The notes beneath the pieces were generated by a model. The model made no database searches. It was not told the DNA's origin and was given only the letters and a program-made list of their open reading frames with translations. Positions 25,429-44,075 of a stretch of 56,914 bases of DNA are shown here, one piece after another. A program made the position numbers and the translations under genes. The stretch is taken from contig DATLOR010000012.1 of the NCBI GenBank assembly GCA_035536135.1, positions 1-56,914 on the forward strand, in the 5' to 3' direction. Within the stretch, counting starts at the first letter, position 1. Each line of letters starts with the position of its first letter. The DNA comes from Pyrinomonadaceae bacterium. GTDB taxonomy: Bacteria > Acidobacteriota > Blastocatellia > Pyrinomonadales > Pyrinomonadaceae.

Positions 25429-25475
25429 TAAATAAATTTGCTTGTAATTTTCGGCAAATGCAAGCAGTTTCGTGC

Positions 25476-27308
25476 TTATTTCGGATTGGAAACCGCAAAA
25501 ATTCCCGACGATTGAAATCGGCTGTCGAGACGGCGGTTTGAGCCGAAAACGAGATAGCCGCCGTTTCTCGACATCGCGGGCGGGCTGACGGTCGAATCGG
25601 TTTCGGTTGAAACGGCGGAAGTTTTATTTTCCGCCAGCGATCTGAGTATAATATTGCCGCCCAGATTTGTCGCTTTTGTGCTGAAGGCGACGAGATTTCC
25701 GTCGTATGAAATGGCGATTTTTTCGCCCTGACCGACGGGGCTGTCGCCGTTTCCCTGTTTGCCTTCCGCGCCGCCGCTCATTCGCACGACTTTGCCCGAA
25801 TCAACTTCGACAACGAAAACATCCTGTAATTTGTTGGTATCGTCCGAAACCATATTCGTCGCCGTCGTCGCAAACGCGACGTAGCGCCCGTTGCCGGAAA
25901 TCGCGGGCGCAACGACGCGGCTCGCGCTTTCGTCGCCCTGATCTTTTTCGCCGCCCGACGCGGTTTTGCTGATTCGTTTGAGCTTCGGCATTCCGCTCTG
26001 CCAGACGTAGATGTCCCAGAGATCGTTTTTGTCTTCCTCGGTCAGCGGAAAATAATTGTAAAACGCAATGCGCGATCCGTCTTCGGAGATCGACGGGCGC
26101 GAACCACCGCCGCCTTTCCCGTCTTTTTCTTTTTTGCTGATGAGCGTCACCGCGCCGCTTCGCATATCTCTCAAAAAGACATTGACGGTCGAAGTTCCCG
26201 ACACGCCGAAAGCCAGATTATCGGCGGAAGACGTAAAAGCGATCAAATTTCCGTCCGCCGAAATGGTCGGTTCAAAGCATTCGGAATTTGCCTCGATGCC
26301 GCGGTTTTCGCTGACGGCGGTAACGCTGTTGCGGTCGTAATTCCAAACGAAAACATCGCGGGTGCTGTTCGAATCAACGGGGACGAGATTCGTCGCGTAG
26401 GATTCGAAGGCGACCGATTTTCCGTCCGCCGAGATCGCCGGCGCGACACTGTTTTGATTGCCTTCCGCGCCGTTCATACCCTGACTGACGAGCCGCGTTT
26501 CGCCGGTTTTCCGGTCGCGCCAGACGATTTGACGATATTTTCCGCTGCCGCCCAACCCGACCGTGTATGTGACAAATGCGATATAACGACCTTCGTCCGC
26601 GCCGCTACCACCGATGACGGGCGTGAAGGTTTCGTAAAATGTGCCGAAAATCTTATCGTCGGAACTGCGGCTGACGAGATCAATGTTTTTGAAAGAAGTC
26701 GGCGAAGTCGGCGGAGTTTCGATCGGATTTTTACCGCAATCGGCTTTGACGATGAGCGGCGTGTTCGGCACAACGCCCTGACTTAAAGTCATCTTGCACT
26801 GGCGCGGTCCGCTCGTTTGCGTAATGCTGTAATCGTCGCCGACCGGATAGCCGCCCAGGTTTGCGGTCGTCGAAAACGGGTATTGATACCTTCGCCGGTA
26901 ATTATCGGCAAAATTGAAAATCTCGCCCTGCTCGATTCCCTTGACTTCCAATTTGAAGATCGAAAACGGCGGCGAGCCGCAATTAGCCGTGATGACAATA
27001 TCCTGACTGGCGAATGTTCCGCGCTCTTGATTAAAAAAATTACAGGTTCGCGGTCCCGACACCTGAGAGATCGAATAAGTCTGCCCGGCGGAAAATTTCG
27101 GCGTGAAATAAACTGTCGGGTTATCGTGATTCAAAACGATCTTCTGCCCGCCGCCGATCGTAAATTCAAACTGTTCCTTGTTTGAAAAAAGACTGCTGCC
27201 GTAGGCGATTCCCAACCGAAACTGACCCGTCTCCTGGGCGGAAATATCCAAAGCATTGAAAAAAATAAATGTCAGAATCAATACGGAAACATTTAATAAT
27301 TTGATCAT
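25476..27308 (-). CDS. secreted protein: two small N-terminal beta domains plus PD40/TolB-like beta-propeller
   Basis: ORF track lists 25476..27347. The start MIKLLNVSVLILTFIFFNALDISAQE lies at 27308. Repeated blades of the form SxDG..(V/I)AF.S.A.NLV, and two ...SGPR.C...CG domains. Confidence 0.8.
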   Translation of the reverse strand: MIKLLNVSVLILTFIFFNALDISAQETGQFRLGIAYGSSLFSNKEQFEFTIGGGQKIVLNHDNPTVYFTPKFSAGQTYSISQVSGPRTCNFFNQERGTFASQDIVITANCGSPPFSIFKLEVKGIEQGEIFNFADNYRRRYQYPFSTTANLGGYPVGDDYSITQTSGPRQCKMTLSQGVVPNTPLIVKADCGKNPIETPPTSPTSFKNIDLVSRSSDDKIFGTFYETFTPVIGGSGADEGRYIAFVTYTVGLGGSGKYRQIVWRDRKTGETRLVSQGMNGAEGNQNSVAPAISADGKSVAFESYATNLVPVDSNSTRDVFVWNYDRNSVTAVSENRGIEANSECFEPTISADGNLIAFTSSADNLAFGVSGTSTVNVFLRDMRSGAVTLISKKEKDGKGGGGSRPSISEDGSRIAFYNYFPLTEEDKNDLWDIYVWQSGMPKLKRISKTASGGEKDQGDESASRVVAPAISGNGRYVAFATTATNMVSDDTNKLQDVFVVEVDSGKVVRMSGGAEGKQGNGDSPVGQGEKIAISYDGNLVAFSTKATNLGGNIILRSLAENKTSAVSTETDSTVSPPAMSRNGGYLVFGSNRRLDSRFQSSGIFAVSNPK

Positions 27309-27402
27309 CCTGTCCTCTCTGAACTTTATTCCGAAGTCTGTTTTCATTCTGTCTTGTTCCGCCTCTTTAAACGGCTGACTTTCTTATTTTTCCATCGGAA
27401 AA

Positions 27403-29205
27403 TTACTGCGCCGCCTGATAATTGTTCGCTTCGAGAAGCGGTTGAATCGCCGCCGCCAGATTGAGCACGTCGGCGCGCGGTCCCCGAAACACGTAATACA
27501 GAGCCGCCGTTTGATTGTCGAGATTTTTGCAAAGCTCGATGCTGACAATCAGTTCGGCATTCGAGCGAATGTGGCGCAGATGATTGCTGTGAAAGCTGGT
27601 GACCCCGATGCGCACGCCGTTTTTCGGATTCACGTAAATAAATCCTCTGCTCCGAAAATAAGGTCCTTGAGGGTTATTCAGGACGAATTCGCCGAACTCG
27701 CTCATCGCGCCCGGCTCGAACGCGAGCAGCGCGACAAAATCGCCCGTCCCTTGAAAATCCGTCAGAAGCGGCATAATCGCCCGGTAAAACGGCGCGAGGT
27801 TCGTCTCGAAATTGACTGAGCCGTGCTGATCGATGCTGAGATTTATATCGAAACCGCCGTCCGCCGTTTGCGACATTCCCAAACCCGCCATTTGATCCTG
27901 ATGCGCCCGCGCTTCATCGGTCGCGTCCGACTTCAACTCGGCATCAATATCCGCCTGAAATTCTTCTTCTTTGACCGATCTGATCGCGCCGTCGTCGCCG
28001 ACGAGATAAAATTTGTAATGATTGTCCGCAGTGTTTTCCGTGCCTTCCCAACGCGTATTTTTGACGGTTTCTTCATCGAAGACCTTTGAAAAAGAATCAA
28101 TCACGACGTAACGTGAGCCGTCATCATTACCCATTCGCCAGTTCACGCCGTAAAGAAACTCGAAAATCTTTTCCCTCGAATCAGCTTTGAGCTGCTCGCC
28201 ATCCGTCCATTCAGGCGGCACGCGGCAGAAAATATTGAGTTTGAAACTTGCCTCGCTGACGAATCCCGACGGAAAACCGAGACCGTCCTGGATAACGAGG
28301 AGCAGCGTATTTTTGCGCGGTTTCGGCGGCGGTGCGGCGGTTGACGACGGCGCAGCGGAAACTCCTTCGTTTTGAAAATCGGCATCGACGTTTTGCTGGA
28401 ATTCCGAAGCCTCGACTTTACGGACTTCACCATTTTCGGAGACGATAAAAAAATAGTAGAGATCGTCGCCTGTTTTACCGAGGTCGAGCCAGTTTTGATT
28501 TTTGACCGTTTCGCCGCCGAAATTTCTGGTTTCGGAACTTTTGATCGTATAGTATGCGCCCGGAAATATTTCCGCTTTCCAGCTTTCGCCGAAGATCAGA
28601 TCGCTGATCCGATTCCAAACGGCTGTTTTGAGCTGACCGTTTTCAATCTGAGCGGGCGGCACGCGGCACAGAAAATTGACTTTATAAGGCGTGTCGATGG
28701 TGTTTCCGGTCGGCAGAACCAACGCTTCCTGAACGGTCACCCGCAGGATTTCGACCGTTTGCCAGCCAGCGGCGGGCTTTAGCTTCGCAAGATGTTCTTT
28801 GATCGGTCGAAGCTGTTTGATCGGGATAAAAAATCCGTCGCTTCCCGTATCGGAATTAAACCAGACGCCGTGTGCGCCGTGCTCCATAAAGCCTTCGAGA
28901 TATTCGACGATTTTTTCCGTCGGAATATTTAAGGTCAGGCAGGTGCCGTCAGGCTCAGCCAGATTGTTTTCGCGCGCGAAACGCTGCGCCCGCTCGGAAT
29001 CGGTAAAGGCGCGCACCATCGGCTGACTATCGGCGTAACCGGCGTTCGCAGCGATATACGGATAAGCGCTCGTCAGATCGCCGCGCATAATAAAAATCCA
29101 TTCCTTTAAATCGAACGCGGCTCCGAAAAGCGCGTTCAAATCTTCCAACGCATTTGTTTGGGTCGCTTTCCGAGCCAGAGCGTCAAAATTCGCCTGATTT
29201 TCCAT
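27403..29205 (-). CDS. hypothetical cytoplasmic protein with an internal duplication of about 135 aa (possible SseB-like N-domain)
   Basis: ORF track lists 27403..29256. The likely start is MENQANFDAL at 29205. Both repeat units contain FxCRVPP...G.QLK...ETVKN..W...EFQ.D. Confidence 0.75.
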   Translation of the reverse strand: MENQANFDALARKATQTNALEDLNALFGAAFDLKEWIFIMRGDLTSAYPYIAANAGYADSQPMVRAFTDSERAQRFARENNLAEPDGTCLTLNIPTEKIVEYLEGFMEHGAHGVWFNSDTGSDGFFIPIKQLRPIKEHLAKLKPAAGWQTVEILRVTVQEALVLPTGNTIDTPYKVNFLCRVPPAQIENGQLKTAVWNRISDLIFGESWKAEIFPGAYYTIKSSETRNFGGETVKNQNWLDLGKTGDDLYYFFIVSENGEVRKVEASEFQQNVDADFQNEGVSAAPSSTAAPPPKPRKNTLLLVIQDGLGFPSGFVSEASFKLNIFCRVPPEWTDGEQLKADSREKIFEFLYGVNWRMGNDDGSRYVVIDSFSKVFDEETVKNTRWEGTENTADNHYKFYLVGDDGAIRSVKEEEFQADIDAELKSDATDEARAHQDQMAGLGMSQTADGGFDINLSIDQHGSVNFETNLAPFYRAIMPLLTDFQGTGDFVALLAFEPGAMSEFGEFVLNNPQGPYFRSRGFIYVNPKNGVRIGVTSFHSNHLRHIRSNAELIVSIELCKNLDNQTAALYYVFRGPRADVLNLAAAIQPLLEANNYQAAQ

Positions 29206-29317
29206 AGATTGTTTTTCTTGGTTAATGTTTGAGTTTTTCTTTTTCGTTAATTTCAAAACGCTTCGGTATAACGAAAATACGTGATCTTCGATAAACTCAA
29301 AACGCGAGGAAATTTAC

Positions 29318-31063
29318 TCAAGCTTCGTCGCTGATTGGCGCAGAATCAGCGGAATCTGCAGACTCTGCTGATTCTGCGGGTTCATCCGCGACGGAAACTT
29401 CTTCGACCGGCGGAAACGCTCTCATCAACAGCCAATATGTGGAAAATGAAACGCCGAAACCGACGAACCAGGCGTAATCGTAAAGGATCTTCATCGGCGT
29501 GACGACCAAACCGACCCACGCGAAAAAACAGCCCAAAAGCGTCGCTAAACAGGCGCGCCAATTCGCTCCTTTTTTTGTCAGGACAAAGCCGAGAAGGACA
29601 AAAATAGCGATCATCACGAGCAGAGTGACGATATTTACCGCCTGCCCCGTTACTCTTCCGAGTTGAAAATGAACGTCGATGAGCGAGTGCAAAAAGTACC
29701 CGAAGATGCCGAAAAAAAGAATCACCGAAATTTTGATGAGCGGCTCGATTTTTTCTTCGAATGAAAAAATACCCTTTTCCCTGTATAAATCGGCAAGCTT
29801 CAAATTCTTGCCGCGAATCAGCCAGTAATCGGCGATCAAAACGCCGGCGATCGAACCCAATCCGCCCGAATAGCCCAAAAGCCACGAGAAAATATAACCC
29901 GACGGATCAGCCAGAAGTTTCCAAGGCATCATCAAAATGCCGACGATTCCCGTGATCAAACCGCCCGTGCGGAACGAGATCCATTTTGGAAAAGCGTTCG
30001 CAAAATCGTTCGCCGGAGAAACGACGTTGGCAGCGATGTTGACCGAAAGCGTCGCGACAACGATCGTGAACATCGAGATCGCGACGACGACGGGCTGCGA
30101 AAATTGTCCGACGAGCTTGACGGGATCCCAAAGGTCTTCGTGCTTCATATTCGGGAAAACGACGATTGCGGCGGAAGTTATCAAAATCCCCATCGCCGCG
30201 AAAACGACCATCGTCGTCGGAAGCGCGACGGTTTGCCCGACGGCTTGTTCGCGCTGCGACTTTCCGAAGCGCGTAAAATCGGGCATATTTAAAGATAGCG
30301 TCGCCCAGAAACCGATCATCGCCGTCAGAGAAGGAATAAAGATCTTGAAAAAGTCGCCGAAGGTCTGAAATTTGCCGGGTTCGTGCAGCAAGAATCCGAT
30401 GCCGCCCGCCTGATACAAAATCCAGCCGAGAAGTGCGGCGGTCATCACCAGAACATACGGCGCCGCCCAGTTTTCGACCGAACGCAATAAATCCATTCCG
30501 CGATAAATGATCGCGATATTCATTGCCCAAAAGATCAAAAACGAAAGCCATTCGGTCGGCGTGTGTCCGCCGATCGCCGCGCCTAAAAGTGTATTCCAAC
30601 CGGGAATGATCGCGCCGAAAAACGTGTGAATCGCCTGTCCGCCGATCCACGCCTGAATTCCGAACCAGCCGCACGCGACGATCGCGCGCATCAGCGCAGG
30701 CAAATTTGAGCCGATCGTGCCGTAGCTTGCCCGCGCAAAGACGGGAAACGGAATGCCGTATTTCGTGCCCGGATGCGAATTCAGCAGAATCGGCGCAAGG
30801 ACAATAATGTTGCCGAGCAGAATCGTGATCAAAGCCTGCCACCAGTTCATTCCGGCGGAGATCAAGCCCGAAGCCATCATATAGGTCGGAATGCAGTGCG
30901 CCATCGAAATCCACAGCGCGGCGTAGTTATAGGTCGTCCAGTTGCGTTTTTCAACCGGCACCGGTGCTAAATCTTCATTATAAAGCGGACTCGTTTTGAT
31001 CGATTCCAAAACATCCGCGTTCAGCTCAACTCGTCCGTCGTCGTGTTGGATTGTTTCACTCAT
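29318..31063 (-). CDS. NCS1-family nucleobase:cation symporter (uracil/cytosine/hydantoin/allantoin type)
   Basis: ORF track, 581 aa. N-terminus NEDLAPVPVEKRNWTTYNYAALWISMAHCIPTYM is the NCS1 signature region. Twelve or more hydrophobic helices and an acidic tail, AESAESADSADSA. Confidence 0.88.
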   Translation of the reverse strand: MSETIQHDDGRVELNADVLESIKTSPLYNEDLAPVPVEKRNWTTYNYAALWISMAHCIPTYMMASGLISAGMNWWQALITILLGNIIVLAPILLNSHPGTKYGIPFPVFARASYGTIGSNLPALMRAIVACGWFGIQAWIGGQAIHTFFGAIIPGWNTLLGAAIGGHTPTEWLSFLIFWAMNIAIIYRGMDLLRSVENWAAPYVLVMTAALLGWILYQAGGIGFLLHEPGKFQTFGDFFKIFIPSLTAMIGFWATLSLNMPDFTRFGKSQREQAVGQTVALPTTMVVFAAMGILITSAAIVVFPNMKHEDLWDPVKLVGQFSQPVVVAISMFTIVVATLSVNIAANVVSPANDFANAFPKWISFRTGGLITGIVGILMMPWKLLADPSGYIFSWLLGYSGGLGSIAGVLIADYWLIRGKNLKLADLYREKGIFSFEEKIEPLIKISVILFFGIFGYFLHSLIDVHFQLGRVTGQAVNIVTLLVMIAIFVLLGFVLTKKGANWRACLATLLGCFFAWVGLVVTPMKILYDYAWFVGFGVSFSTYWLLMRAFPPVEEVSVADEPAESAESADSADSAPISDEA

Positions 31064-31548
31064 ATTTTATTGATTTTTTTTACCATCGTTAATGCCGTGC
31101 CGTGCTTTGAAATAATTTCAAAATCCATTTTCCGGTAAAGATTAACGGCACGATTCCGCCCGTCAACGCTCAAAGAAACTTTCTCAAATCCGTCTGTTTT
31201 TAAGGTTTCCAGTAATTTCGCAATCAAGATCCGTCCGAAACCTTTGTTTCGATAATTTTCCTTGACTGCAATGCTCAATTCGGGAGTTTTCTCGTCAACA
31301 AAACCATAGCTTTTCTCGCTTTCCGCAAAAAGTCTTGACCAAACCGCGCCGGTTAATTCGTTCTTATCCGCGAGGACAAAAGCATAATCGCCTTTTCGCC
31401 CGAAATTATCAACATATTTTGAAAGATGCGGCTCAAAGACAATTGATTTGGGCAGTTTTTGATCTTCGTCCGCAAAATAAATTGCTTCATACAACATATC
31501 GCGCAAAAATTCGTGCTCAGCTGGGTTTATTTCACGAATTTCCATCAT
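31060..31548 (-). CDS. GNAT-family N-acetyltransferase
   Basis: ORF track lists 31060..31599. Starting at MMEIREINP (31548) removes the overlap with the upstream gene. Acetyl-CoA motif: NYRNKGFGRILIAKLLE. The stop overlaps the permease start by 4 nt. Confidence 0.8.
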   Translation of the reverse strand: MMEIREINPAEHEFLRDMLYEAIYFADEDQKLPKSIVFEPHLSKYVDNFGRKGDYAFVLADKNELTGAVWSRLFAESEKSYGFVDEKTPELSIAVKENYRNKGFGRILIAKLLETLKTDGFEKVSLSVDGRNRAVNLYRKMDFEIISKHGTALTMVKKINKI

Positions 31549-31550
31549 TT

Positions 31551-32069
31551 CTACCCGGAAATCGCGACCGGCTTCGTATCCGAAACGGTGATCGACCATT
31601 TCCGCAAATCATCGGCTTTACCCGCGTTATTGGTCAGCAGCACAACCGATCTGACTTTCAAATCCGTCAAAATCTCCGCCGCCGGACGAAAGCTTCGCGC
31701 ATCTCGTTCGAATCCCGCTTTTTCGTAGGCTTCCGCCTGCTTCAATCCGGCTTTTTTATACGGAATGCTCGCCATCAGCGCCAGATGCCCGTTGCCTTTG
31801 CCTTCCTGTTCGAGATAAATAATCACGCCTTTTCCGGCATTTTGGATCAAACTTTGCGCCGCTTCCATTTCCGCCTGGCATTCACATTCGACGCTGTTAA
31901 AAACGTGCCCCGAAACGCAAGCCGAATGAACGCGGCAAATGACGTCTTCTTGCGTTTCGATGTTTCCCATCACGAGCGCGATCGATTCCTTTTGTCCGTC
32001 GTAATAAAGGATCTCCCGAAATATGCCGTATTTGGTCTGTAAATCTCTTTCCGTCAGTCTGAAAATCAT
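31551..32069 (-). CDS. GTP cyclohydrolase II-like protein (short RibA homologue)
   Basis: ORF track, 172 aa. RVHSACVSGHVFNSVECECQ matches the zinc Cys triad pattern of RibA, and YLEQEGKGNGH matches the RibA QEGRGIG loop. Confidence 0.78.
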   Translation of the reverse strand: MIFRLTERDLQTKYGIFREILYYDGQKESIALVMGNIETQEDVICRVHSACVSGHVFNSVECECQAEMEAAQSLIQNAGKGVIIYLEQEGKGNGHLALMASIPYKKAGLKQAEAYEKAGFERDARSFRPAAEILTDLKVRSVVLLTNNAGKADDLRKWSITVSDTKPVAISG

Positions 32070-32070
32070 A

Positions 32071-32142
32071 CTAAATCTTAACGCATTCGCCGCGTTTGAT
32101 GAATTGTCTGCTGCCTTTTTCGACCGGATATTCGCTGTTTTC
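32071..32142 (-). pseudogene. relic of a dihydropyrimidinase 3' end (last about 24 codons plus stop)
   Basis: Minus-strand translation ENSEYPVEKGSRQFIKRGECVKI* matches the intact gene's ENGEHKGKAGDGQFLKRGECVKI*. Ungapped identity is 49/72 nt to 34680..34751. An in-frame TGA lies two codons upstream. Confidence 0.8.
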
Positions 32143-32167
32143 TTTTCAAAGTAAGATTACTAACTAC

Positions 32168-33157
32168 TTACAGTCTCAGCGTTTCGCCGAGTCCGAAAAA
32201 TTGGTATTTATCGCCGAATTCCTTTTGAAGAATTAAAAAACCGAGCTGTCCGGTGCAATGCGCCGGGGCGACCGCTTCAACGCCGTAATCGTCGCGCATC
32301 CGTTTTGCCAAACTTTCGATATACCCGCGTTTATAGGGAATAAGATGAAAGCCGCCCGCGACCAGATAAATTTTTTCCTGGCGCGTCTTTTTAGTTTCCT
32401 GAATGATACTTTCGATCGTGCTGTGCGAGCATCCTGAAATTATGATGTCGCCTTTTTCGGTCGCAAGTGAAAGCGATAATTCGGGCATACCGATAAACTG
32501 CGGATTTTTATCGAACGGCGGGTATTTGATAAAGGTTCCCATCAATTCGGAAGTCGTCGGGATCAATGTGACGCCGGGCAAAACCTCCTTCGCGGCGGTC
32601 AGATATTCGACATTTGCCTTCCAGAATCTGCCGGTCGGGACCGTGACCATTCCGTCCGTGGTTTTTTCGCCGCGAAAATACTGCTCGTCTTTCGGCAGCA
32701 ATTTCGCCGCATCAGGTTCGGTTTCGCGAAAGGGAAATTTCACGGGCGCACCGAGCGAAAAGAAATCGTTCGGCGCGTAAATTTTAACTTTCGGGTTAAC
32801 CTTTAGTAGATAATCAAAACCGCCGACGTGATCGTAGTGCCCGTGCGAAACGATTGCCACATCTATCTTTCGCAGATCAATTTTCAAAGTTTTAAGATTC
32901 TTCTCAAAAACTCGCGCGTCGGTTCCCGAGTCGAACAAAATCATCTTTCCTTTGTAATTAATCACACAGGAAAACCCGAAATCCTGCGTAAGTCCGTTAA
33001 TGTCCTTGCCGAAAGCGTCATAAACATTCGTCATCGTGACACCTAAAGCGGTCGGTTTCGTTTGGGCGGCAACCGGGAGCACAAACACGAACTGCGCGAT
33101 CATCGCTAAACACAGCAGGCAGGATTTTATTCGTTTCATGATTGTTTTCTTTTTCAC
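32168..33157 (-). CDS. secreted MBL-fold metallo-hydrolase
   Basis: ORF track, 329 aa. Signal peptide present. HGHYDHVGG (HxHxDH) motif. Confidence 0.85.
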   Translation of the reverse strand: MKKKTIMKRIKSCLLCLAMIAQFVFVLPVAAQTKPTALGVTMTNVYDAFGKDINGLTQDFGFSCVINYKGKMILFDSGTDARVFEKNLKTLKIDLRKIDVAIVSHGHYDHVGGFDYLLKVNPKVKIYAPNDFFSLGAPVKFPFRETEPDAAKLLPKDEQYFRGEKTTDGMVTVPTGRFWKANVEYLTAAKEVLPGVTLIPTTSELMGTFIKYPPFDKNPQFIGMPELSLSLATEKGDIIISGCSHSTIESIIQETKKTRQEKIYLVAGGFHLIPYKRGYIESLAKRMRDDYGVEAVAPAHCTGQLGFLILQKEFGDKYQFFGLGETLRL

Positions 33158-33195
33158 TCAAACCCTTGTTGAAATTTAATTAACCGATGCGGCGA

Positions 33196-33642
33196 TTACT
33201 TATCTTTCGGCATATCAGGCATATCAGCCATATCGATCATATCGAGAAACGGCGTGTCCTTATCGCTCACGTAAAAAATCACCAAGCGCAAAGGCTCGGT
33301 TGCGCTTCGGTTATAACCGGTCATTTTCACGTTCGGGGGCTCGATATACGCTTCGCCCGCTTTGACGACCAGCGGCTCTTTGCGTCCTTCGAGATTTAAT
33401 GTAAACGCGCCTTCGAGAATATAAACCGTCACCGGAAAACGGTGCTTATGAAATACGGTCTTATCGCCCGGCTTAAATTCCGCCGTCAAAACGCGCACTT
33501 CCTGATCTTTGCCCATCGGCATTCCCTTAATGATCTCGTTCAAAATCTGCTTGGGCTTTGTAACTCCCTGACCAAATACTGCCACGGGCAAGCCGATCAA
33601 TAAAAAGACAAATACAAAACCAAATTTCATTTGTTTATTCAT
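33196..33642 (-). CDS. secreted cupin-domain protein
   Basis: ORF track lists 33196..33678. The start MNKQMKFGFVFVFLLIGLPVAVFG lies at 33642. Cupin motif: FHKHRFPVTVYILEG. Confidence 0.8.
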   Translation of the reverse strand: MNKQMKFGFVFVFLLIGLPVAVFGQGVTKPKQILNEIIKGMPMGKDQEVRVLTAEFKPGDKTVFHKHRFPVTVYILEGAFTLNLEGRKEPLVVKAGEAYIEPPNVKMTGYNRSATEPLRLVIFYVSDKDTPFLDMIDMADMPDMPKDK

Positions 33643-33665
33643 ATGTTCTCCTGTAAAAAATTCTC

Positions 33666-33779
33666 CACACTGACGCAAGTTCCGCGCTTCAAAAATTGAC
33701 TGTCGCCTTGTCGTCCGACGAGGTATTCGCCGTTTTCGATGACGACGCGACCGCGCGACACAACGGTTTCGACCCGCTT
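33666..33779 (-). pseudogene. relic of a dihydropyrimidinase 3' end (about 37 codons, stop lost)
   Basis: Minus-strand translation VETVVSRGRVVIENGEYLVGRQGDSQFLKRGTCVSV is colinear with the C-terminus of 34680..36059. 33726..33774 matches 34740..34788 at 48/49 nt. Confidence 0.85.
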
Positions 33780-34649
33780 TTATTTAACTCTTGTTCCCAT
33801 CTGCGTCAGGCTCTCGCACATCGAACGAATATTGATGTGATCGAAATTATCAATCGTTGATTTGCGCCGATACATTTTCCATTGTGCGCCCTTGGCATCT
33901 TTGATAATGATGCCGTTTTCGGTTTCTGTTCCGTATCTCGCCCCCTCGATCTTGGCATGAGTCGTCCATTTGCCTTTGACGGGCGGTCTGCCGCCGTCCT
34001 GATACCAAACGTAGGTGCCGTCGGCGTTGATTTGAATGCCCGGTGATTTGCCCCAGGCGGCAATCGTTCCTGAGGCATTGCCATTGACCGCGACCGAAGT
34101 CATAGACCATTTGCCGACGAGAAATTTTATTTCAGCGTTGTCGGCGGAAATCGTCGCGGCTGGACGAACGAACATTGAATTTTCCCAAACATCGTATTTT
34201 TCGCTGCAGCCGTCGTAGTGAACTTTATACTGACTGCCGTTTATCTCGATAATCGTGCCGCGATTTTTTCCTTCCTTGTTGTCCGAAAGATAAACGTCAA
34301 CGCGCATCCCGGTTTTAAAGTTCCCGCCGTTCGGCGTTCGGTTGTCGTCGGGTTTGTCCGTATTTTGATTACCCTGCGTTTGATTGTTTTGCGGCGCGGC
34401 TTGCCGGCACTCGCCCAGGCGATCGGCGTTGTAAAAAGTATCGCGGTCTTTATACGTTCCTTCTTCGATGTGAACCGAATATTTCGGATCGGTCTGCCTG
34501 ACTGTCGCTTTCACGCAGCCGCCGGAAAAGGCGTTGACGTAAATCGTGTCGCCGACCTTGAAATCGGTTTTGTCCTGTGCGAAAGAAATTATCGCGCCGC
34601 CGAAAAGCAGCCCGACGGCGAAAAAGATAAAAGTTACATTAAATTTCAT
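33780..34649 (-). CDS. secreted hypothetical protein (two SH3/Tudor-like repeats plus beta-rich C-domain)
   Basis: ORF track, 289 aa. Signal peptide present. Repeated F(K)xGDxIYV / FKTGMRVDVY modules. Gln/Asn-rich linker. Confidence 0.7.
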   Translation of the reverse strand: MKFNVTFIFFAVGLLFGGAIISFAQDKTDFKVGDTIYVNAFSGGCVKATVRQTDPKYSVHIEEGTYKDRDTFYNADRLGECRQAAPQNNQTQGNQNTDKPDDNRTPNGGNFKTGMRVDVYLSDNKEGKNRGTIIEINGSQYKVHYDGCSEKYDVWENSMFVRPAATISADNAEIKFLVGKWSMTSVAVNGNASGTIAAWGKSPGIQINADGTYVWYQDGGRPPVKGKWTTHAKIEGARYGTETENGIIIKDAKGAQWKMYRRKSTIDNFDHINIRSMCESLTQMGTRVK

Positions 34650-34679
34650 AATCGTTCTTCTTTTAATTCGTGTGAACTT

Positions 34680-36059
34680 TCAAATCTTGACACATTCGCC
34701 GCGCTTGAGAAATTGCCCGTCGCCTGCCTTTCCTTTGTGTTCGCCGTTTTCGATGACGACGCGACCGCGCGACAGAACGGTTTCGACCTTGCCTTTGATC
34801 TTTTTGCCTTCGTAAGCGCAGTAATCGACGTTCATATGCTGGGCTTCGAGTGTGAATGTGTGTTCTTTTTCGGTGTCGAAGATCACGATGTCGGCATCGC
34901 TTCCGACGGCGATCGTGCCTTTTTTCGGGAACATTCCGAACATTTTCGCGGCAGCGGTCGAGGTCAGCTCGACAAAACGGTTGAGCGAAATTCGGTTTTC
35001 GACCACGCCGCCGTTGTAGATCAGTTCCATCCGGTATTCTACGCCCGGCGCGCCGTTCGGAATTTTCGAGAAATCATCGCGCCCTAATTCCTTTTGGTCT
35101 TTCATACAAAACGGGCAATGATCGGTCGCAATTATTTGAAGATCGTCCATTTTCAAACCCTTCCACAATTCATCGTGATTATGTTTTTCGCGAAGCGGCG
35201 GCGTCATCACATATTTCGCGCCTTCGAATCCCTCGCCGTAATCGTCAATCGAAAGAAACAAATATTGCGGGCAGGTTTCGGCAAACGCGGGAATGCCGCG
35301 GTCGCGTGCCTGACGGACTTGGTTGAGCGCGTCGGTGCAGCTCAAATGCACGATATAAACGGGCGTTTCCGCCATTTCTGCCAAGGCGATGGCGCGGTGC
35401 ACGCCTTCGGCTTCGGCAATGGTCGGGCGCGTCAGAGCGTGATATTTCGGCGCGGTTCTGCCTTCTGCGAGAAATTTTTTAATAATTTCGTTGATAACGA
35501 TACCGTTTTCCGCGTGCATACAAACCAGTCCGCCGCGTTCGCCCGCCGCGCTCATCGCCCGAAAAATCGTCGCGTCGTCCGAGAGAAAGACGCCCGGATA
35601 CGCCATAAACAATTTGAAGCTCGTGATGCCTTCATCGATCAATTTAAACATTTCGGGTTTGTGCCGGTCTTCAAAATCGGTCGTAATCAGGTGAAAGCCG
35701 TAATCGATCACGGCTTTGCCCTCGGCTTTCTGATGCCAAAGGTCGGCGCCCGCGAGCATCGATTCGCCTTTCGTCTGGACGGCGAAATCAATGATCGTCG
35801 TCGTTCCGCCGAACGCCGCCGCCCTGGTTCCCGTAAAAAAATCGTCCGACGAAGAAGTTCCGCCAAAGGGCAGTTCCATATGCGTATGCGGATCGATCCC
35901 GCCCGGAATGACCAATTTGCCCGAAGCGTCGATCACCGTGTCGGCTTCCATCTCCAATGTTTTCCCGATCACGGAAATCTGCTCGTCCTCGATTAAAATA
36001 TCCGCGCGGTAATCATCGACCGCCGTTACGATTCGTCCGTTTTTGATTAGTGTTTTCAT
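34680..36059 (-). CDS. dht: dihydropyrimidinase / D-hydantoinase
   Basis: ORF track, 459 aa. Motifs: MKTLIKNGRIVTA...GGIDPHTHMELPFGGT, carboxylated-Lys region SFKLFMAY, and ATDHCPF. Confidence 0.92.
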   Translation of the reverse strand: MKTLIKNGRIVTAVDDYRADILIEDEQISVIGKTLEMEADTVIDASGKLVIPGGIDPHTHMELPFGGTSSSDDFFTGTRAAAFGGTTTIIDFAVQTKGESMLAGADLWHQKAEGKAVIDYGFHLITTDFEDRHKPEMFKLIDEGITSFKLFMAYPGVFLSDDATIFRAMSAAGERGGLVCMHAENGIVINEIIKKFLAEGRTAPKYHALTRPTIAEAEGVHRAIALAEMAETPVYIVHLSCTDALNQVRQARDRGIPAFAETCPQYLFLSIDDYGEGFEGAKYVMTPPLREKHNHDELWKGLKMDDLQIIATDHCPFCMKDQKELGRDDFSKIPNGAPGVEYRMELIYNGGVVENRISLNRFVELTSTAAAKMFGMFPKKGTIAVGSDADIVIFDTEKEHTFTLEAQHMNVDYCAYEGKKIKGKVETVLSRGRVVIENGEHKGKAGDGQFLKRGECVKI

Positions 36060-36075
36060 AGTTTTTTAATAAAAA

Positions 36076-37515
36076 TCATTTGTTTTTTGCGGCTGTTTCA
36101 GCGTCAACCAGCATTTTGTCCAAAGTTTTTCTGTCTAACAATCTTCCGCCCGCGACGACCGAATTTATTTTGCGCGTGTTGGAAATGTCTTCGAGCGGAT
36201 TCGCGTCGAGCAAAATCAAATCCGCCAGTTTTCCTTTTTCAATCGTTCCCAAATCTTTCGCGCGGCGCATAAAAATTGCCGGATTGACGGTCGCGGTTTT
36301 TAAGGCTTCAAATGGTGAAAGTCCGGCGAGAACGAAGAGCGCAAGCTCATCGTGGAGAATCATTCCCGGCGTTCCGACCAAGTCGTAGCTTAACTGCGTT
36401 CCGGCAAGCAGCATTATTCCGGCGCGGTTTAAGTCAAAAATCTCCCGAAAATGTCTCATGCGGTTTTTGTCCGACATTCGATAATCCTGATTGCGAATTT
36501 GCCGTTCCCTTTCAATGATTTTCGCGTCGAGCTGCTCAATCTGCTTTTTCGTTTTAAAGCGGCGACGCGCTTCGTCCGTGAGTTCAAAATCTCCGATGAA
36601 AGTATCAGTTTGCGCGGCGTTAGTGGCGACAAAAGTTTTATTTCGCGCCATTGTTTTTATAGTTTCGTTATAATAAGGAGCGTCGGTTTCCATCGTGCCG
36701 AAGAATGCATAATTTTCGTCAGTCGTCATCGAATCAATTTTGCGGTCGCGGTAAAGCGCGTAGTATTCGTTGCGTTTGTTAGAAGTTTCCCGAAAAAATT
36801 CCGCAAAATGCTCGATGCAGTCCAGCCCGTCATTCGATGCGTCAATGATAAAGGAAGGCGGAACACCGACGACGCGCAAGTTTTGTTCGTGCGCGGCGGC
36901 GATGATTTCCTTTAAAGTTTCGGGCGGCGTGCGTTTTTCCGTTTTGATGAAATCCACGCCCGCGAGCGCGAGCGCGGCGACCGTTTTCCGCGCTTCTTCT
37001 TTTGTTTTCACAACAACAGAAATTCCCGTCCAGCGGTTGCTCTTGCGCGGCGGAAATTCGCCCTGCAAAACCGTTCCGGCATAAAACAGACGCGGCGCGA
37101 GCGTTCGTCCGGCGTTGATGTCGTCGCGCAGTTTCGCCGCTTCCTGCAAATCAAGAGACGTTCCGACATCGCGCACGCCGGTCACGCCGTTGGCGATCAA
37201 TAATTCAAAAAACGGGTAATCGTTTTTCTCGGCTTCGAGCACGAAAGTGTAATTATCCCAGAGTCCGGGAATCATAAATTTTCCTCTCGCGTCCACGACC
37301 TGCGCGTTTTTCGGAATCTTTAAATTCCTGCCGATCTTCACAATGCGGTTTCCTTTTACGAAAACCGAAACATTCGTCTTCGGTTGCGCGCTTTGCATAT
37401 CAATCAGCGTGACGCTGCGGAAAACAAGGAGACGATCCGGCGAAGTTTCACCGGCTTGCCCGAAGATCAATACCGGCAAGTAGAAAATCAACACCAGTGC
37501 AATCGTTTTTTTCAT
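36076..37515 (-). CDS. secreted amidohydrolase-superfamily protein
   Basis: ORF track, 479 aa. Signal peptide present. C-terminal GTIEKGKLADLILLDANPLEDISN is typical of the family. Confidence 0.82.
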   Translation of the reverse strand: MKKTIALVLIFYLPVLIFGQAGETSPDRLLVFRSVTLIDMQSAQPKTNVSVFVKGNRIVKIGRNLKIPKNAQVVDARGKFMIPGLWDNYTFVLEAEKNDYPFFELLIANGVTGVRDVGTSLDLQEAAKLRDDINAGRTLAPRLFYAGTVLQGEFPPRKSNRWTGISVVVKTKEEARKTVAALALAGVDFIKTEKRTPPETLKEIIAAAHEQNLRVVGVPPSFIIDASNDGLDCIEHFAEFFRETSNKRNEYYALYRDRKIDSMTTDENYAFFGTMETDAPYYNETIKTMARNKTFVATNAAQTDTFIGDFELTDEARRRFKTKKQIEQLDAKIIERERQIRNQDYRMSDKNRMRHFREIFDLNRAGIMLLAGTQLSYDLVGTPGMILHDELALFVLAGLSPFEALKTATVNPAIFMRRAKDLGTIEKGKLADLILLDANPLEDISNTRKINSVVAGGRLLDRKTLDKMLVDAETAAKNK

Positions 37516-37616
37516 TTCTTTAAATTGGCATCCAAACGTGTTGTCCCAATCGAAATATCCGCGCGGTAATCATCAAATGCCGCCCGCGAGTCGTCTGTTT
37601 TCATTAGCGTTTTCAT
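37512..37616 (-). pseudogene. relic of the dihydropyrimidinase 5' end, preserved as an intact 34-codon ORF
   Basis: Translation MKTLMKTDDSRAAFDDYRADISIGTTRLDANLKK* compares with the real MKTLIKNGRIVTAVDDYRADILIE. The identical core TCCGCGCGGTAATCATC occurs at 37558..37574 and 36001..36017. The TGA overlaps the ATG of 36076..37515 (ATGA). Confidence 0.8.
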
Positions 37617-37621
37617 AATTT

Positions 37622-39046
37622 TTATTTTATTTCTTCCAACTGAAAATCGGCTATTTTCCCGTCCTTTGTCAATTTCACCGTGCAGGAAAACGTACGCGTA
37701 ACGTCGTTTAGAAAATAACGATATACACGAAAATTGTCTTCAGCGCGGCGCTCGATCAATTCGTTTGTGTAAATGACCGCGACCGGAATGCTCAAAGAAG
37801 TCAGTTTTTCACCGATTTGTTTGGCGCGCGCCGGAAAAATTTCTGCCGCGGCTTCGGGCGTGAACAAATTCAAATCGGCGGCGCTCTTTGAAAACTGCAA
37901 TAAAACCCGCCTGACCAGCAAAGTCGTCTGCGGTTCCTTATCTTCGATCGGCGGCGCGGCGGGCGGCGCAAATTCGCGATAAAATAGCGCCGTTAGCCCG
38001 CGGGCGAGTTTAAATTCTTTCGTATCCCACGAATTGGCGAAAAAAATGATCGTCAGTTTGTCGTCGGGAAAACGACCAATAAACGACTTGAAGCCCTGCC
38101 ACGCGCCGCCGTGATAAATTAAACGGCGACCTTTGAATTCAACCGTATGCCAGCCAAAACCGTAAGCTTTTTCGCTGCCGTCGTTTAGTTTTACAGGCGT
38201 CCATATCTGCGCCAGAGTTGATTGTTTGAGCGGTTGATCCGTATAAAGCGCGGCATCCCATTTCGCCAAATCTAAAATTGTAAAATAAAGCGAGCCGTCG
38301 GCGGTCGTATTCGTCGAAGGCGAAACCCATTCCTGATTTTTCAGCACACCGTTTTCGAGCCGGTAACCAGCAGCACGATTCGGGATAATATCGGATTCCG
38401 AGATAATGCGCGCCGTCCGCATATCGAGCGGCTTAAAAATTCTTTCCTGCAAAAAATCGCCGTAAAACTTTCCGGTTACACGGCGCACGAGCGCGCCGAG
38501 CGTAAAGTATCCGGCATTGCTGTAATCCCACCGCGTGCCCGGCTCAAAGGCGAGCGGCGTTTTTTTGATAATGGCAAGATATTCGTCTTCCGAATAATCG
38601 CGCCGTAAATCGACTTCCGGCGGATAATCGCCCATTCCCGAAGTATGATTTAGAAGATTCCGCACGGTAATATTTTTCCACGCCTCGGGCGCGTCCGCAA
38701 AATATTTCGTGATTTTATCGTCAAGCGCCAACTTTCCTTCTTCGACCAGAATCATCACGGCAGCAGCGGTAAACTGCTTACCGATCGAGCCGGATTGAAA
38801 CACGGTCTCGGGTTTGACGGGCACGAGATGTTCGATGTTTGCCAGACCATAGCTTTTCAAAAACACGATTTTTCCGGCGCGCAAAACAGCGAGCGAAATG
38901 CCCGGTATTTTTTGCATCTGCATCTCGGCTTTAACATAGCGGTCAATTCCGGCTGAGATATTCTGCTGCGCAGCACACGGCAAAACAAACAGCCAAATAA
39001 TGCCGGAGAAAACTGTCAGCCAGTACCGAAATGTTTTAGCTCTCAT
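37622..39046 (-). CDS. secreted serine hydrolase (class-C beta-lactamase / DD-peptidase family)
   Basis: ORF track, 474 aa. Motifs: SxxK in SGSIGKQF, YxN in YSNAGY, and HGG in the KTG position. Confidence 0.85.
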   Translation of the reverse strand: MRAKTFRYWLTVFSGIIWLFVLPCAAQQNISAGIDRYVKAEMQMQKIPGISLAVLRAGKIVFLKSYGLANIEHLVPVKPETVFQSGSIGKQFTAAAVMILVEEGKLALDDKITKYFADAPEAWKNITVRNLLNHTSGMGDYPPEVDLRRDYSEDEYLAIIKKTPLAFEPGTRWDYSNAGYFTLGALVRRVTGKFYGDFLQERIFKPLDMRTARIISESDIIPNRAAGYRLENGVLKNQEWVSPSTNTTADGSLYFTILDLAKWDAALYTDQPLKQSTLAQIWTPVKLNDGSEKAYGFGWHTVEFKGRRLIYHGGAWQGFKSFIGRFPDDKLTIIFFANSWDTKEFKLARGLTALFYREFAPPAAPPIEDKEPQTTLLVRRVLLQFSKSAADLNLFTPEAAAEIFPARAKQIGEKLTSLSIPVAVIYTNELIERRAEDNFRVYRYFLNDVTRTFSCTVKLTKDGKIADFQLEEIK

Positions 39047-39166
39047 AACTATTGACTAAATAAAATTTACTCGTGATGTTATTGCTAAACGATTCCCCCA
39101 ATTTTGATAAATCCGGTCATAAGATTTAAAGCTGTTTTTTGCAAAGTTTCCAGGTAATCAAACAAT

Positions 39167-41716
39167 TTATTTTAAAAGCTCTTCGATTCGAACCGGTTCG
39201 TAATTTTTCGCTTTCAAAAAATCAATCAATTCGTTCAAGCGGTTGTAAAATTTATCGGTGCGTTCGGGCGCGGTGCCGATGTGCAGAAGCAAGATAAAAC
39301 CGTTAAGCCCGTTCGCGTCTTTTGCTTCATAATCCTTGAGCCGTTTGAAAATCGCGTCGCTCGGCGCGTAGTTCTTCATCTCGGGCGTGGTGTAATCGGC
39401 ATTCGACCCGGTGCCGGACGTAAAATTTACAAGCTGTAAATTCATCGCATTCGTCCAATTGCTGATGTCCTGATTAAACCATTCAAACGGCGGCAGAAAA
39501 AACGGCGCGTTACGCTTCGCGATTCCGAATTCTCGCATCACAGCATAGTTTTTATTCAGATCTTTTTCAAATTCCGTGCGGCTGACGAGCAATTTATTGC
39601 GGTCGTTCCAATCATTATAAAGCAGATGCTTATCGGAATGCGCGCCTAAGAAGTGACCGTCGCGCTTTAAGCGCAAGATCGCGGATCTGAACGCACGGTT
39701 GCGGTAAAAACGTCCCGTGAAAAAGAACGAAGCCTTAACTTTTTGTTTTTTCAGCACGTCGGCGATAGTTTCAGCGCCGTCGGCAAATTCGTCGCCCGTA
39801 AAAACCAGCGCCAGTTTCTTCTGCGATATGTCGCCGCGAACGATCGCGCCCTGGTCGTATTTGAAACGCGGATTTGTTTTTGCCGCCCGAGGATTCGGAC
39901 GGCTCAGGCTCGCCATCATCAAAATCGCGTCCGCCGTTCCGTCCATCGTCGGTTCGTTGGTCGAATAATCGCCGACATCGTCGTGATAGACGATTCCCTT
40001 CGGCTGAAACTCGGCAAATTCGTCCGCTTCGTTCAGGCGCAGACCGCGCAAATTATTGTATGTCTGCGCGAGAATCGGACCGTCAACCAGACCGCCCGTA
40101 ACTTGTTTTTTGAGCAATTGAACGATCGGCAGATGCGTGTCTTCGGGAAATTCACCGTCCGCCGGGATGCCTTCAAACATCGTCGTGCCCCACGGGTTGC
40201 GCCCGAAAAGCCAGTCGCGGTGCGCAAGCGCGGATTCGTGAAACTGCCGATCACCGGTCATTCGCTCGTAAAGAAAAACCTGCGTGATATACGCCACCAC
40301 GAGATTATTCGAGCACCACAAAAACGGCACGCCGACGCCGTAGGAATTTGTTTTTCCGCGCTTGATGATGTTCTCGATATTTTCGCGGTAATAAGCGGCA
40401 AGGTCTTTTTTCGTTTTGGCATCCGCGAGCGGGTAAAGCGCGAAATGCCCGACGTTCGTGAAGGGATAAAACTCGTAATGCTCCGCCGTCTCATGCTGCA
40501 TCCACGAAGCTGCGCCCGCGATGCGCGCATATCTTTTCGCGTCCGCCAGATAATCCGTCTGGCGCGTCGCTTTGAATAATTCAGCCGCCGCCCATTCCAT
40601 ATCGTCCGCCCAGGTGTCCTCGTTGTAACGGTACGGCGCGCCGTATGAATTTCCCTGCTGAAAGCCTTCCTTTTGCTTGCCCATCGCGTAAAGCTCGGTT
40701 GCCGCCTTTAAATACTGTTCGGCTTGCAGTGGATTTTTCAGATCATTTCTCCAGATGCGCGAAGCCGCGGCAAGCGCCGCCGCCGAACGTCCCGCGATGT
40801 TCGCGATCCCCGTCGATTTGCTTTTGAATTCGCGCAAGCCCTGCGGCTTTCCGTCGGCGAAATAGACGGGACGATAGCTGTTTGCGCCCCAGCCGTAATC
40901 GGCGTTGTCCTCGTCGGGCAATTTAAAACCTTTGTGGTCGCGGTCGTCCGCCACCTGATGAAACAGCCAGCCGGCGCGCGGGTGAAGTTTGAGAATCCAA
41001 TCCAAGCCCCATTTCGCTTCGTCCAGAACATCCGCGATGCCGTTCGCCTGCGGGCGACCGTAATCGTCCACGCGGTCGGCAAACTTGTTTTTCTCTAATT
41101 CAAAAGCAAGCAGCATCCGCGCGGTCGCGTTGCTTGCCGTGATCAGATATTTCAATTGATCGCCCGCATCGTGCCAGCCGCCGCTTGCGTCAATAAAAGT
41201 TTTATCGGCGACGGGTGCGTAAAACGAGCGCCCGTCGCGCTGGTGGCAAACCATATCCAGAACGGGATTATAGCCGCAGCGCTGGGCACGCATAAAAAAC
41301 AACAGATCTTCCTGAAAGGCGGGATATTCGCCGATCGAAAACTGACGCGAAACGATTTGTGATTTTTCTAACTGAACATAAAATCTGCCCGTCTGCCGAA
41401 CGGCGGAAAAATCCAGCTCGTAATAGAACGGAAAATCCGCGCCCCAATTATCCGCTTTTGCTTCGCGCAAAGGCGCACGAAAAATCACCTTTCCGCTTGC
41501 CGCGTCAATTAATAAAAAATCGCCTTCGAGCGCACTTTTTGAAAAAGCGATCGCCTTTTTCGCATCCGTTTCGAGATAACCGATCTGATTGACGCGAATC
41601 TGCACATCGAGCGCGAAAACGGTTGCGGAAAAAATAAACAAAACGAATGTTAAGCCAAGCAAAATGCTTCGGCGTTTGTTTTGTTTATAAATTGAGGATT
41701 GTTGGTTTTCCGACAT
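39167..41716 (-). CDS. glycoside hydrolase family 9 fused to a polysaccharide-deacetylase-like C-domain
   Basis: ORF track lists 39167..41776. The start MSENQQ... lies at 41716 and is followed by a TM/signal segment. GH9 motifs: GGWHDAGDQLKY and YSTNEPTMDGTA. The C-terminal LVFTGDEFADG...GAHSDKH is deacetylase-like. Confidence 0.82.
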   Translation of the reverse strand: MSENQQSSIYKQNKRRSILLGLTFVLFIFSATVFALDVQIRVNQIGYLETDAKKAIAFSKSALEGDFLLIDAASGKVIFRAPLREAKADNWGADFPFYYELDFSAVRQTGRFYVQLEKSQIVSRQFSIGEYPAFQEDLLFFMRAQRCGYNPVLDMVCHQRDGRSFYAPVADKTFIDASGGWHDAGDQLKYLITASNATARMLLAFELEKNKFADRVDDYGRPQANGIADVLDEAKWGLDWILKLHPRAGWLFHQVADDRDHKGFKLPDEDNADYGWGANSYRPVYFADGKPQGLREFKSKSTGIANIAGRSAAALAAASRIWRNDLKNPLQAEQYLKAATELYAMGKQKEGFQQGNSYGAPYRYNEDTWADDMEWAAAELFKATRQTDYLADAKRYARIAGAASWMQHETAEHYEFYPFTNVGHFALYPLADAKTKKDLAAYYRENIENIIKRGKTNSYGVGVPFLWCSNNLVVAYITQVFLYERMTGDRQFHESALAHRDWLFGRNPWGTTMFEGIPADGEFPEDTHLPIVQLLKKQVTGGLVDGPILAQTYNNLRGLRLNEADEFAEFQPKGIVYHDDVGDYSTNEPTMDGTADAILMMASLSRPNPRAAKTNPRFKYDQGAIVRGDISQKKLALVFTGDEFADGAETIADVLKKQKVKASFFFTGRFYRNRAFRSAILRLKRDGHFLGAHSDKHLLYNDWNDRNKLLVSRTEFEKDLNKNYAVMREFGIAKRNAPFFLPPFEWFNQDISNWTNAMNLQLVNFTSGTGSNADYTTPEMKNYAPSDAIFKRLKDYEAKDANGLNGFILLLHIGTAPERTDKFYNRLNELIDFLKAKNYEPVRIEELLK

Positions 41717-41928
41717 ATTGATTTTACGGCGCGATGAGCAGTTCAATCGAAGGCGAATAACTGCCGACCATTTCATTACCGATTAAATATCGCCCGCTCA
41801 AGTAGACTTGTTCGGGCTTGCCGTCCGTCAGAGGAATTTTGACGATTACCGGAGAATGAAAGTATCTGCCTAGATCATTTGCTTAAATAGAACAGCCGAA
41901 AATTCCGCACCCGCGGACGAAATTACGT

Positions 41929-42732: not shown

Positions 42733-42766
42733 AAATTTTTATCTTTCTACCGATAAATTCGTCGCT

Positions 42767-44071: not shown

Positions 44072-44075
44072 AATT

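Follow-up and report, generated by a model that had tools for sequence, protein, structure and literature searches.

Gene Content of the dht Locus

The window (the whole stretch of DNA analysed here, 56,914 nt assembled from a soil metagenome) carries on its minus strand a 459-aa gene, dht, whose Pfam match (Amidohydro_1, 2.5e-25) and pyrimidine-catabolism gene context place it among the predicted dihydropyrimidinases/D-hydantoinases, and which is the parent gene of the fragments ("relics") described below. In relatives, whose loci are given L numbers here, the operon context of dht comprises an NCS1 permease, CN_hydrolase, DHO_dh, an aminotransferase, and an aldehyde dehydrogenase; a less disturbed operon is that of L091 (aldehyde dehydrogenase - aminotransferase - dht - NCS1 - CN_hydrolase - DHO_dh), whose gene order is that of a reductive pyrimidine-catabolism cluster. 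The operon of the window appears to be spread over 20 kb (23965..44212, minus strand) by many same-strand inserts (GH9, beta-lactamase family, amidohydrolase, secr, cupin, MBL, GNAT, PD40, and others), and neither CN_hydrolase nor DHO_dh was found among the window ORFs scanned.

Read along the minus strand, the locus begins with an aminotransferase, a DUF4440/cupin gene, GH9, a serine beta-lactamase-family gene, a 5' relic of dht, an amidohydrolase gene, and dht itself; dht is followed by secr, relic 2, cupin, a metallo-beta-lactamase-fold gene (MBL), relic 3, and a GTP-cyclohydrolase-II-like (ribA-like) gene, and the series ends with GNAT, the NCS1 permease, two genes, and the aldehyde dehydrogenase (Table 1). 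The 5' relic has the serine beta-lactamase-family gene on one side and the amidohydrolase insert (36076..37515) on the other, so that the dht N terminus has undergone the same displacement as the C terminus.

Table 1. Coordinates of dht, its relics, and the neighbouring cassettes in the window, in minus-strand order.
Feature	Position	Strand	Evidence
5' relic: 7 nt of leader and dht codons 1-23, MKTLMKTDDSRAAFDDYRADISI	37548..37623	-	82% nt identity to dht 5' end
dht, 459 aa, mosaic: L001-like (81-93% nt) to ~nt 1320, F-type after	34680..36059	-	Pfam Amidohydro_1; sliding identity
Core copy 1 (dht nt 1272-1320, KVETVLSRGRVVIENGE), resident allele	34740..34788	-	48/49 to L001; orthologues average 75%
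F-type tail of functional dht, apparently imported, HKGKAGDGQFLKRGECVKI	34683..34739	-	51/57 to L089 dht tail and L083 relic
30-nt spacer, apparently travelling with secr	34650..34679	-	Homologous 30-nt dht-secr spacers in L082, L083
secr, inserted cassette gene, 289 aa, signal-peptide-like N terminus, no Pfam family	33780..34649	-	81-84% homologues in L082, L083
Junction pentamer AAGCG, secr stop to relic start	33775..33779	-	Same in three genomes
Relic 2, core copy	33726..33774	-	48/49 to copy 1; 47/49 to L001
Relic 2, distal tail YLVGRQGDSQFLKRGTCVSV	33666..33725	-	First 10 nt L001-like; rest of the tail type that accompanies cupin
Putative former stop (now GAG, 33665..33663) and old 20-nt dht-cupin spacer with AGGAG ribosome-binding site	33643..33665	-	TAG in L088/L089
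Cupin gene, probable older cassette with MBL	33196..33642	-	Pfam Cupin_2; pair directly after full dht in L089/L090
MBL gene, same probable older cassette	32168..33157	-	Pfam Lactamase_B
Relic 3, putative ancestral resident dht tail ENSEYPVEKGSRQFIKRGECVKI, aa 437-459	32074..32142	-	90% over 71 nt to L002 tail

End-relics of other genes were not found in the 57-kb window, where dht alone has them. The other candidate matches of this kind were set aside, as they correspond to internal repeats of a 2399-aa ORF and to one paralogue pair. The former (7203..14402, plus strand) also shows cross-matches between overlapping out-of-frame ORFs at ~8.5-12.8 kb; two adjacent paralogous ORFs (1..1583 and 1723..4413, minus strand) have signal-peptide-like N termini and share a 45-residue C-terminal match (53%, E=6e-14).

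Sequence and Mosaic Divergence of Relic 2

Relic 2 is a 114-nt fragment of the dht 3' end (33666..33779, minus strand) that reads KRVETVVSRGRVVIENGEYLVGRQGDSQFLKRGTCVSV. Positions 33666..33776 align with dht residues 424-459 when dht is searched against the 57-kb window (tblastn, E=1.4e-10), and blastn against dht gives 84% identity over 93 nt (E=1e-18, same window); the fragment is, as the original prediction had it, a second dht 3' end colinear with the C terminus. Its divergence from dht is very uneven. The two core copies are identical at 48 of 49 nt, with a longest exact run of 35 nt; past this core, 22 of 57 aligned nt are mismatched and a 3-nt in-frame indel is added, against the single mismatch of the core itself (Fisher p=2e-6). 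The breakpoint analysis that had been proposed as a check places the best two-segment split of the relic 2/dht alignment exactly after column 49 (permutation p<=5e-4), so that the predicted near-identical core with a far more diverged distal part stands. One has to keep in mind that this core is not a conserved stretch: across 78 orthologues its pairwise identity averages 70%, and a match of at least 48/49 is reached in 0.03% of pairs, which argues against plain conservation. The distal part, with its in-frame indel, retains a GD.QFLKRG.CV motif, and its divergence looks like that between functional genes.

Ancestry of Each Piece

We compared the locus with 80 species-representative genomes that have a dht orthologue, all but two of them titled Acidobacteriota and most being Pyrinomonadaceae MAGs; all the data behind the locus comparison are metagenome assemblies. 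The dht of the window is closest to that of L001 (93% aa identity), with a switch of the sliding nucleotide identity in the last ~120 nt: from nt 1 to ~1320 the gene is L001-like, and beyond this point L001 drops to 70% while L007/L008 rise to 84%. Over the last ~90 nt of the functional gene, identity to L001 is only 70%, and the tail peptide is identical to that of L006.

The pieces of relic 2 have other affinities. Its first 59 nt (nt 1272-1330) match L001 at 56 of 59 positions, that is, 10 nt further than the resident allele extends in functional dht, whereas the best orthologue match of the remaining tail is only 44/60 nt. This distal tail belongs to a "GTCV(S/N)" type, and L088 has a GTCVNM-type relic before its cupin. 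No donor genome with the exact relic 2 tail was found, the best having 44/60 nt and 81% peptide identity; a protein search with the relic 2 peptide returned only short ORFs (40-75 aa, best identity 81%), and a metagenome scan with secr returned only four loci. Relic 3 is only 70% identical to the window's own dht tail and keeps just 12 nt of the core, and its 57-nt tail part matches L002 at 51/57; because it is 90% identical to L002 against 70% to the tail of its own genome, it is to be seen as the ancestral resident tail, which has kept its join to the ribA-like gene.

Judging from these affinities, relic 2 appears to be the older resident end of dht, and the tail of the functional gene the imported part. 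Relic 2 as a decayed copy of the present dht end does not agree with the 56/59 match of its first 59 nt to L001, which points to the older resident end. The abrupt change in divergence had been predicted to mark a recombination or gene-conversion junction, and the different phylogenetic affinity of the two sides supports a recombination junction.

Shared Junctions, Modules, and Empty Sites

In L082 and L083, homologues of secr (81-84%) are separated from the end of dht by 30 nt, and a dht-tail relic follows them there, too. The junction between secr and relic reads TAA-AAGCG-GGTCGAAACC in the window, TAA-AAGCG-GATCGAAAT in L083, and TGA-AAGCG-TGTCGAA in L082; as the same junction occurs in the three genomes, it formed once. 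The secr-linked relics of L082 and L083 are degenerate (frameshifts, stops) and carry the F-type tail, and the dht genes of these two loci belong to another subclade. An insertion of secr that would be private to the window and recent is not compatible with this picture, the secr-relic junction being old and common to L082 and L083.

Empty sites exist for both cassettes. In L089/L090, a full-length dht is followed by TAG, a 24-nt spacer, the ATG of cupin, and then MBL; in L001/L002, the closest two loci with contig past dht (92-93% aa), dht is directly followed by the ribA-like gene. These relatives bear out the view that 33780..34649 is an inserted gene with the dht end as a direct repeat on either side. 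Most relatives have the NCS1 permease after dht, with or without a variable insert in between. The cupin-MBL pair is found in L088 behind an alpha/beta-hydrolase cassette and a relic, and the MBL 3' flank with its relic-3-type junction is common to the window, L088, and L089. Since junctions are shared across genomes, each of them arose once, and whole modules have later moved by recombination into different arrays.

Two of these loci carry additional short dht-tail fragments: one in L089 (1372..1416), between cupin and MBL, and one in L082 (2852..2905), between DUF4440 (the cassette after the secr-linked relic) and the ribA-like gene. The L089 and L082 arrays have a relic at nearly every cassette boundary. 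A possible extension of the dht homology into the end of secr (GTRVK-stop versus GKKIKG) was rejected, as the relic-free homologues L085-L087 end in QMGTRV/QMGTRL too.

Recurrence of dht End-Relics in Related Loci

The 45-50 terminal residues of all orthologues were searched against the dht loci, outside the main gene (E<1e-3). At least 16 further distinct relics were found in related Pyrinomonadaceae loci, all on the dht strand. The loci with further end-fragments are L002, L003, L004, L008, L010, L019, L032, L073, L009 (one N-terminal and two C-terminal relics), and L013 (three N-terminal and one or two C-terminal); N-terminal relics are also present in L002, L003, L004, L008, L009, L013 (three copies), L019, and L073. 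The C-terminal relics start at variable points between dht nt 1272 and 1335 (1272, 1289, 1301-1319, ~1335), and the N-terminal ones run from the start codon to nt 50-163. Relic-bearing loci amount to 9 of 21 in the subclade of the window versus 1 of 59 elsewhere (L001-L080, p=1e-5), which suggests a lineage-specific propensity for dht end-relics.

L032 (11289..12214) is a fresh case of displacement: a two-gene insert is flanked there by two copies of the final 91 nt of dht, which are 97.8% identical and show no similarity past the stop codon. The insert consists of an 86-aa ORF and a second ORF that is nucleotidyltransferase-like by eye, possibly a toxin-antitoxin pair.

Proposed History and Mechanism

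The locus is shown to be a mosaic whose pieces differ in ancestry; its junctions are shared with relatives, where empty sites exist and relics recur. On these grounds, we regard relic 2 as probably the dead remnant of a former dht 3' end, a scar left by gene gain through terminal displacement. We infer the order of events as follows. At the start, dht would have stood directly before the GTP-cyclohydrolase-II-like gene, as it still does in L001/L002. A first module, in which another type of dht tail and a spacer preceded cupin and MBL, would have entered by recombination within the ~100 conserved nt at the end of dht and displaced the old tail downstream, giving relic 3. A second module, made of the F-type tail, the 30-nt spacer, secr, and the AAGCG junction with the relic start, would have recombined likewise, displacing the then-current end (resident core and cupin-linked tail), which would be relic 2. 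Both times, the crossover would have fallen in the core encoding KVETVLSRGRVVIENGE, the only end stretch similar enough between donor and recipient, the tails beyond ENGE being too different to recombine; use of the core for the crossover would explain the 48/49 identity up to ENGE and its collapse after it, where the imported F-type tail starts. A full-length dht ending in ...EYLVGRQGDSQFLKRGTCVSV before its stop and adjoining cupin would mark the state before the arrival of secr.

The molecular route may have been one of three, each of which could leave the observed footprint: a Campbell-type insertion, by a single crossover, of a circle that had been cut out between two copies of the core, as proposed for rhs; a double crossover with DNA of a donor whose array already contained secr and a relic; or, for the primary junctions, homology-facilitated illegitimate recombination. 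The objection that homology-anchored recombination should be unable to give a duplication does not hold, as it is enough that the second join is made within the recipient gene at a point downstream of the first crossover. Of the junctions observed, the left one is seamless within the core and the right one reads AAGCG followed by GTCGAA. Both cores are L001-like (48/49 and 47/49), whereas a simple crossover predicts one donor-allele copy per position; two resident cores would require a near-identical donor core, mismatch (heteroduplex) correction, or later gene conversion, and gene conversion between the cores at a later time may also have added to their near-identity. The shortness of the relics (at most ~160 nt) may have two causes: longer repeats would recombine and lose the cassette, and a join made more distally would disrupt the gene that follows or part it from its translation signals.

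A bolder reading, which we put forward as a tentative idea that could well prove wrong, is that both dht ends serve as an integrase-free, homology-driven gene-capture site within the pyrimidine-catabolism operon of one Pyrinomonadaceae subclade, with cassettes that would each carry a portable dht-end homology arm, excise as circles, and be re-inserted beside any related dht. If this were true, one-way arrays of promoterless genes would be expressed from the operon, and terminal displacement would operate outside polymorphic-toxin loci, at both gene termini. A circle junction was sought in the contigs of four soil runs (up to ~8x); the joints listed belong to other organisms, and a unitig graph cannot tell a circle from the integrated form.

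Alternative Explanations

Instead of being a dead remnant, relic 2 could be kept as a working element, either as a leader coupling the translation of cupin through an ATGA overlap or as a selected homology arm. Its frame is indeed open over 46 codons and ends, as had been predicted, in a TGA overlapping the cupin ATG (33639..33642), and many of the relic ORFs in metagenomes are intact. The original prediction saw in this overlap a coupling geometry, but it is secondary: at the homologous position, L088 and L089 have a TAG stop and then a 22-24-nt spacer with a ribosome-binding site, where the window has GAG. The 20 nt after this GAG (AATTTTTTACAGGAGAACAT) represent the old spacer, in which the ribosome-binding site of cupin lies; GAG and spacer together are now translated in frame as ENFLQENI. 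Because L088/L089 have the TAG, the ATGA overlap is a by-product of stop-codon loss in a pseudogene (TAG to GAG). Relic 3, said to share the same geometry, departs from it, its order being TAG, one base, and the ATG of the ribA-like gene. Against a working relic also stand the frameshifts and stops of the homologous relics in L082/L083 and the RNA-level searches, which detected neither excess fold in relic 2 (z=0.16) nor any Rfam match to it at E<=1. Promoter-like and terminator-like sites were absent from 33666..33779, and in the region promoter-like sites occur at chance level (2 found versus 2.2 expected). We, thus, hold a working relic to be improbable; as far as sequence can tell, relic 2 seems non-functional, and nothing indicates a function of its own.

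Site-specific integration with a replacement gene end, the integrase having been lost later and the 49-nt core being the att core, would also produce direct repeats of a gene 3' end around an insert, with a near-identical core and then a diverged replacement tail. What such an event would not be expected to give is the variety of C-relic boundaries listed above, nor the existence of 5' relics of 50-163 nt; moreover, the inserts comprise one to two genes, no motif is common to the junctions, and Pfam detected no integrase, transposase, or recombinase domain (0) in 20 large ORFs scanned at 22-51 kb. We consider this origin even less probable than a working relic.

A scenario in which the dht end was tandemly duplicated in situ, one copy then decayed neutrally, and a gene was later inserted between the copies, with no horizontal input, agrees with same-orientation direct repeats ~1 kb apart and with their near-identical core. 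Decay, however, would be uniform, which the mismatch contrast of 1/49 versus 22/57 is not; the reading frame is kept across the indel, the nearest relative differs from tail to tail, and both the secr-relic junction and the spacer are shared with L082/L083, whose dht is of another subclade. There is very little probability left for this scenario.

An assembly chimera, in which co-existing strains would be joined at a shared k-mer, is the least probable reading of all, even for a soil metagenome with a 35-nt exact repeat that exceeds k=31: positions 31626..34672 of the window agree at 99.74% with L084, a 3048-nt JGI contig of a different metagenome, a 331-nt Logan contig from a second soil run (X2 record 11) covers 33527..33857, from cupin through the relic into secr, with 0 differences, and the same secr-relic junction is present in L082 and L083. 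The concern of a misassembly, raised together with the original prediction, was, thus, tested and rejected for the relic side. Contigs of the best-matching run X1 (also L081) end exactly at the 35-nt exact repeat, since such a repeat must break k=31 unitigs. Variants lacking 33780..34649, which had been expected from recombination between the direct repeats, were not seen in the same-population contigs (depth ~8x).

Comparison with Known Systems

The displaced ends of dht recall those of rhs loci, where core fragments of variable length, with their tips, lie downstream, the cores are identical within a locus, and other genomes contain the same tips and modules; in the model proposed (Jackson et al. 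2009, PMC2935791), a module enters by homologous recombination in the core and moves the old tip downstream. Modules of cdiA-CT/cdiI and rhs-CT have also been described as orphans (Poole et al. 2011, PMC3150448). The dht locus and the rhs/cdiA loci have the same layout, namely an intact gene, then a same-strand core piece with a different tip, and the downstream gene(s) of that tip. On the strand of dht, relic 2 (aa 424-459) and relic 3 (aa 437-459) come after the intact gene; in relic 2, a core of 48/49 is joined to a tip of 35/57, with relic starts ranging from nt 1272 to ~1335 across loci; and modules recur, secr in the window, L082, and L083, cupin-MBL in the window, L088, and L089/L090, at different array positions. 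The dht locus departs from the rhs type in its content, which includes no toxin tip or immunity gene (Amidohydro_1, Cupin_2, and Lactamase_B were found, and secr is without family). The dht tips are homologous enzyme tails of ~20 residues, whereas those of rhs/cdiA are toxin domains; the dht cargo consists of a secreted protein, cupin, MBL, alpha/beta hydrolase, DUF4440, and GGDEF instead of immunity genes; and dht is a metabolic amidohydrolase whose 5' end is displaced too, rhs and cdiA being polymorphic toxins.

The effector/immunity arrays of the V. cholerae T6SS are built by sequential displacement, with older genes further downstream, and sometimes keep a 3' remnant of the displaced gene; the route suggested for them is homology-facilitated illegitimate recombination (Kirchberger et al. 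2017, PMC5361080). Both they and the dht array show successive insertions beside a conserved anchor; the dht array differs in having no effector-immunity logic that would select for retention, and its relics are those of the anchor gene itself. In the homology-facilitated illegitimate recombination of naturally transformable bacteria, a single homologous anchor brings in the foreign genes beside it, and the second join is non-homologous (de Vries & Wackernagel 2002; Prudhomme et al. 2002; both cited in PMC5361080). Such a process would explain primary junctions such as TAA-AAGCG followed by core. The experiments of de Vries & Wackernagel and of Prudhomme et al. reportedly delete, for the most part, recipient DNA beside the anchor; at the dht locus, in contrast, the second join lies inside the anchor gene, so that its end is retained.

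Phage 21 and e14 integrate into icd with a substitute 3' end, in an integrase-mediated reaction at a fixed site and with a large element. The dht locus has in common with them a replacement end, an original end left as a pseudo-fragment at the far junction, and repeats that share a core and then diverge; it differs by the absence of recombinase domains in the ORFs scanned, by variable boundaries, by inserts of only one to two genes, and by 5' relics. Integron arrays are, like the dht array, one-way series of small promoterless same-strand cassettes beside a fixed point, with 60-110-nt separators, but the dht locus has no IntI among the ORFs scanned and its separators are gene-end relics without attC-like structure (the z of 0.16 given above).

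Implications for Gene Gain and Annotation

A single relic is ordinary and, taken alone, a scrap of pseudogene. Taken as an array, the relics are a readable, dated record of the addition of single genes to a bacterial operon without mobile-element machinery: as each insertion supplies a new end and leaves the old one behind, the order of the relics gives the order of acquisition, and each insertion keeps the enzyme gene intact by means of the new end. The recurrent, ordered array of dht relics is apparently an undescribed example of integrase-free gene accretion, and the same scar-leaving process has repeatedly added genes beside dht in related soil Acidobacteria. Its kind is known from rhs, cdiA, and T6SS loci, whose architecture it matches; what appears to be new here, by this comparison, is that such scars occur in uncultured Acidobacteria and mark both ends of a metabolic gene. 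The pattern shows the displacement process of toxin loci at work on an ordinary metabolic gene too, and suggests that, in uncultured soil Acidobacteria, new genes can be gained by recombination anchored in conserved genes.

On the practical side, such relics are annotated in metagenomes as "dihydropyrimidinase" genes of 40-75 aa. Metagenome protein sets hold many ORFs of this size and name (P0221-P0246; JGI naming), which are dht-tail relics or edge fragments, and several of them start with unrelated residues before the dht tail begins (for example, ...IKGKVETVLSRGRVVIENGE...). One candidate, P0229 (a 51-aa ORF on a 190-kb contig), was discarded as a relic, as it is part of a dht that is frameshifted in a long-read assembly. 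A 58-aa relic ORF (L091, 6001..6177) lies between a GGDEF-gene insert and NCS1 in L091/L092 and was found on five contigs.
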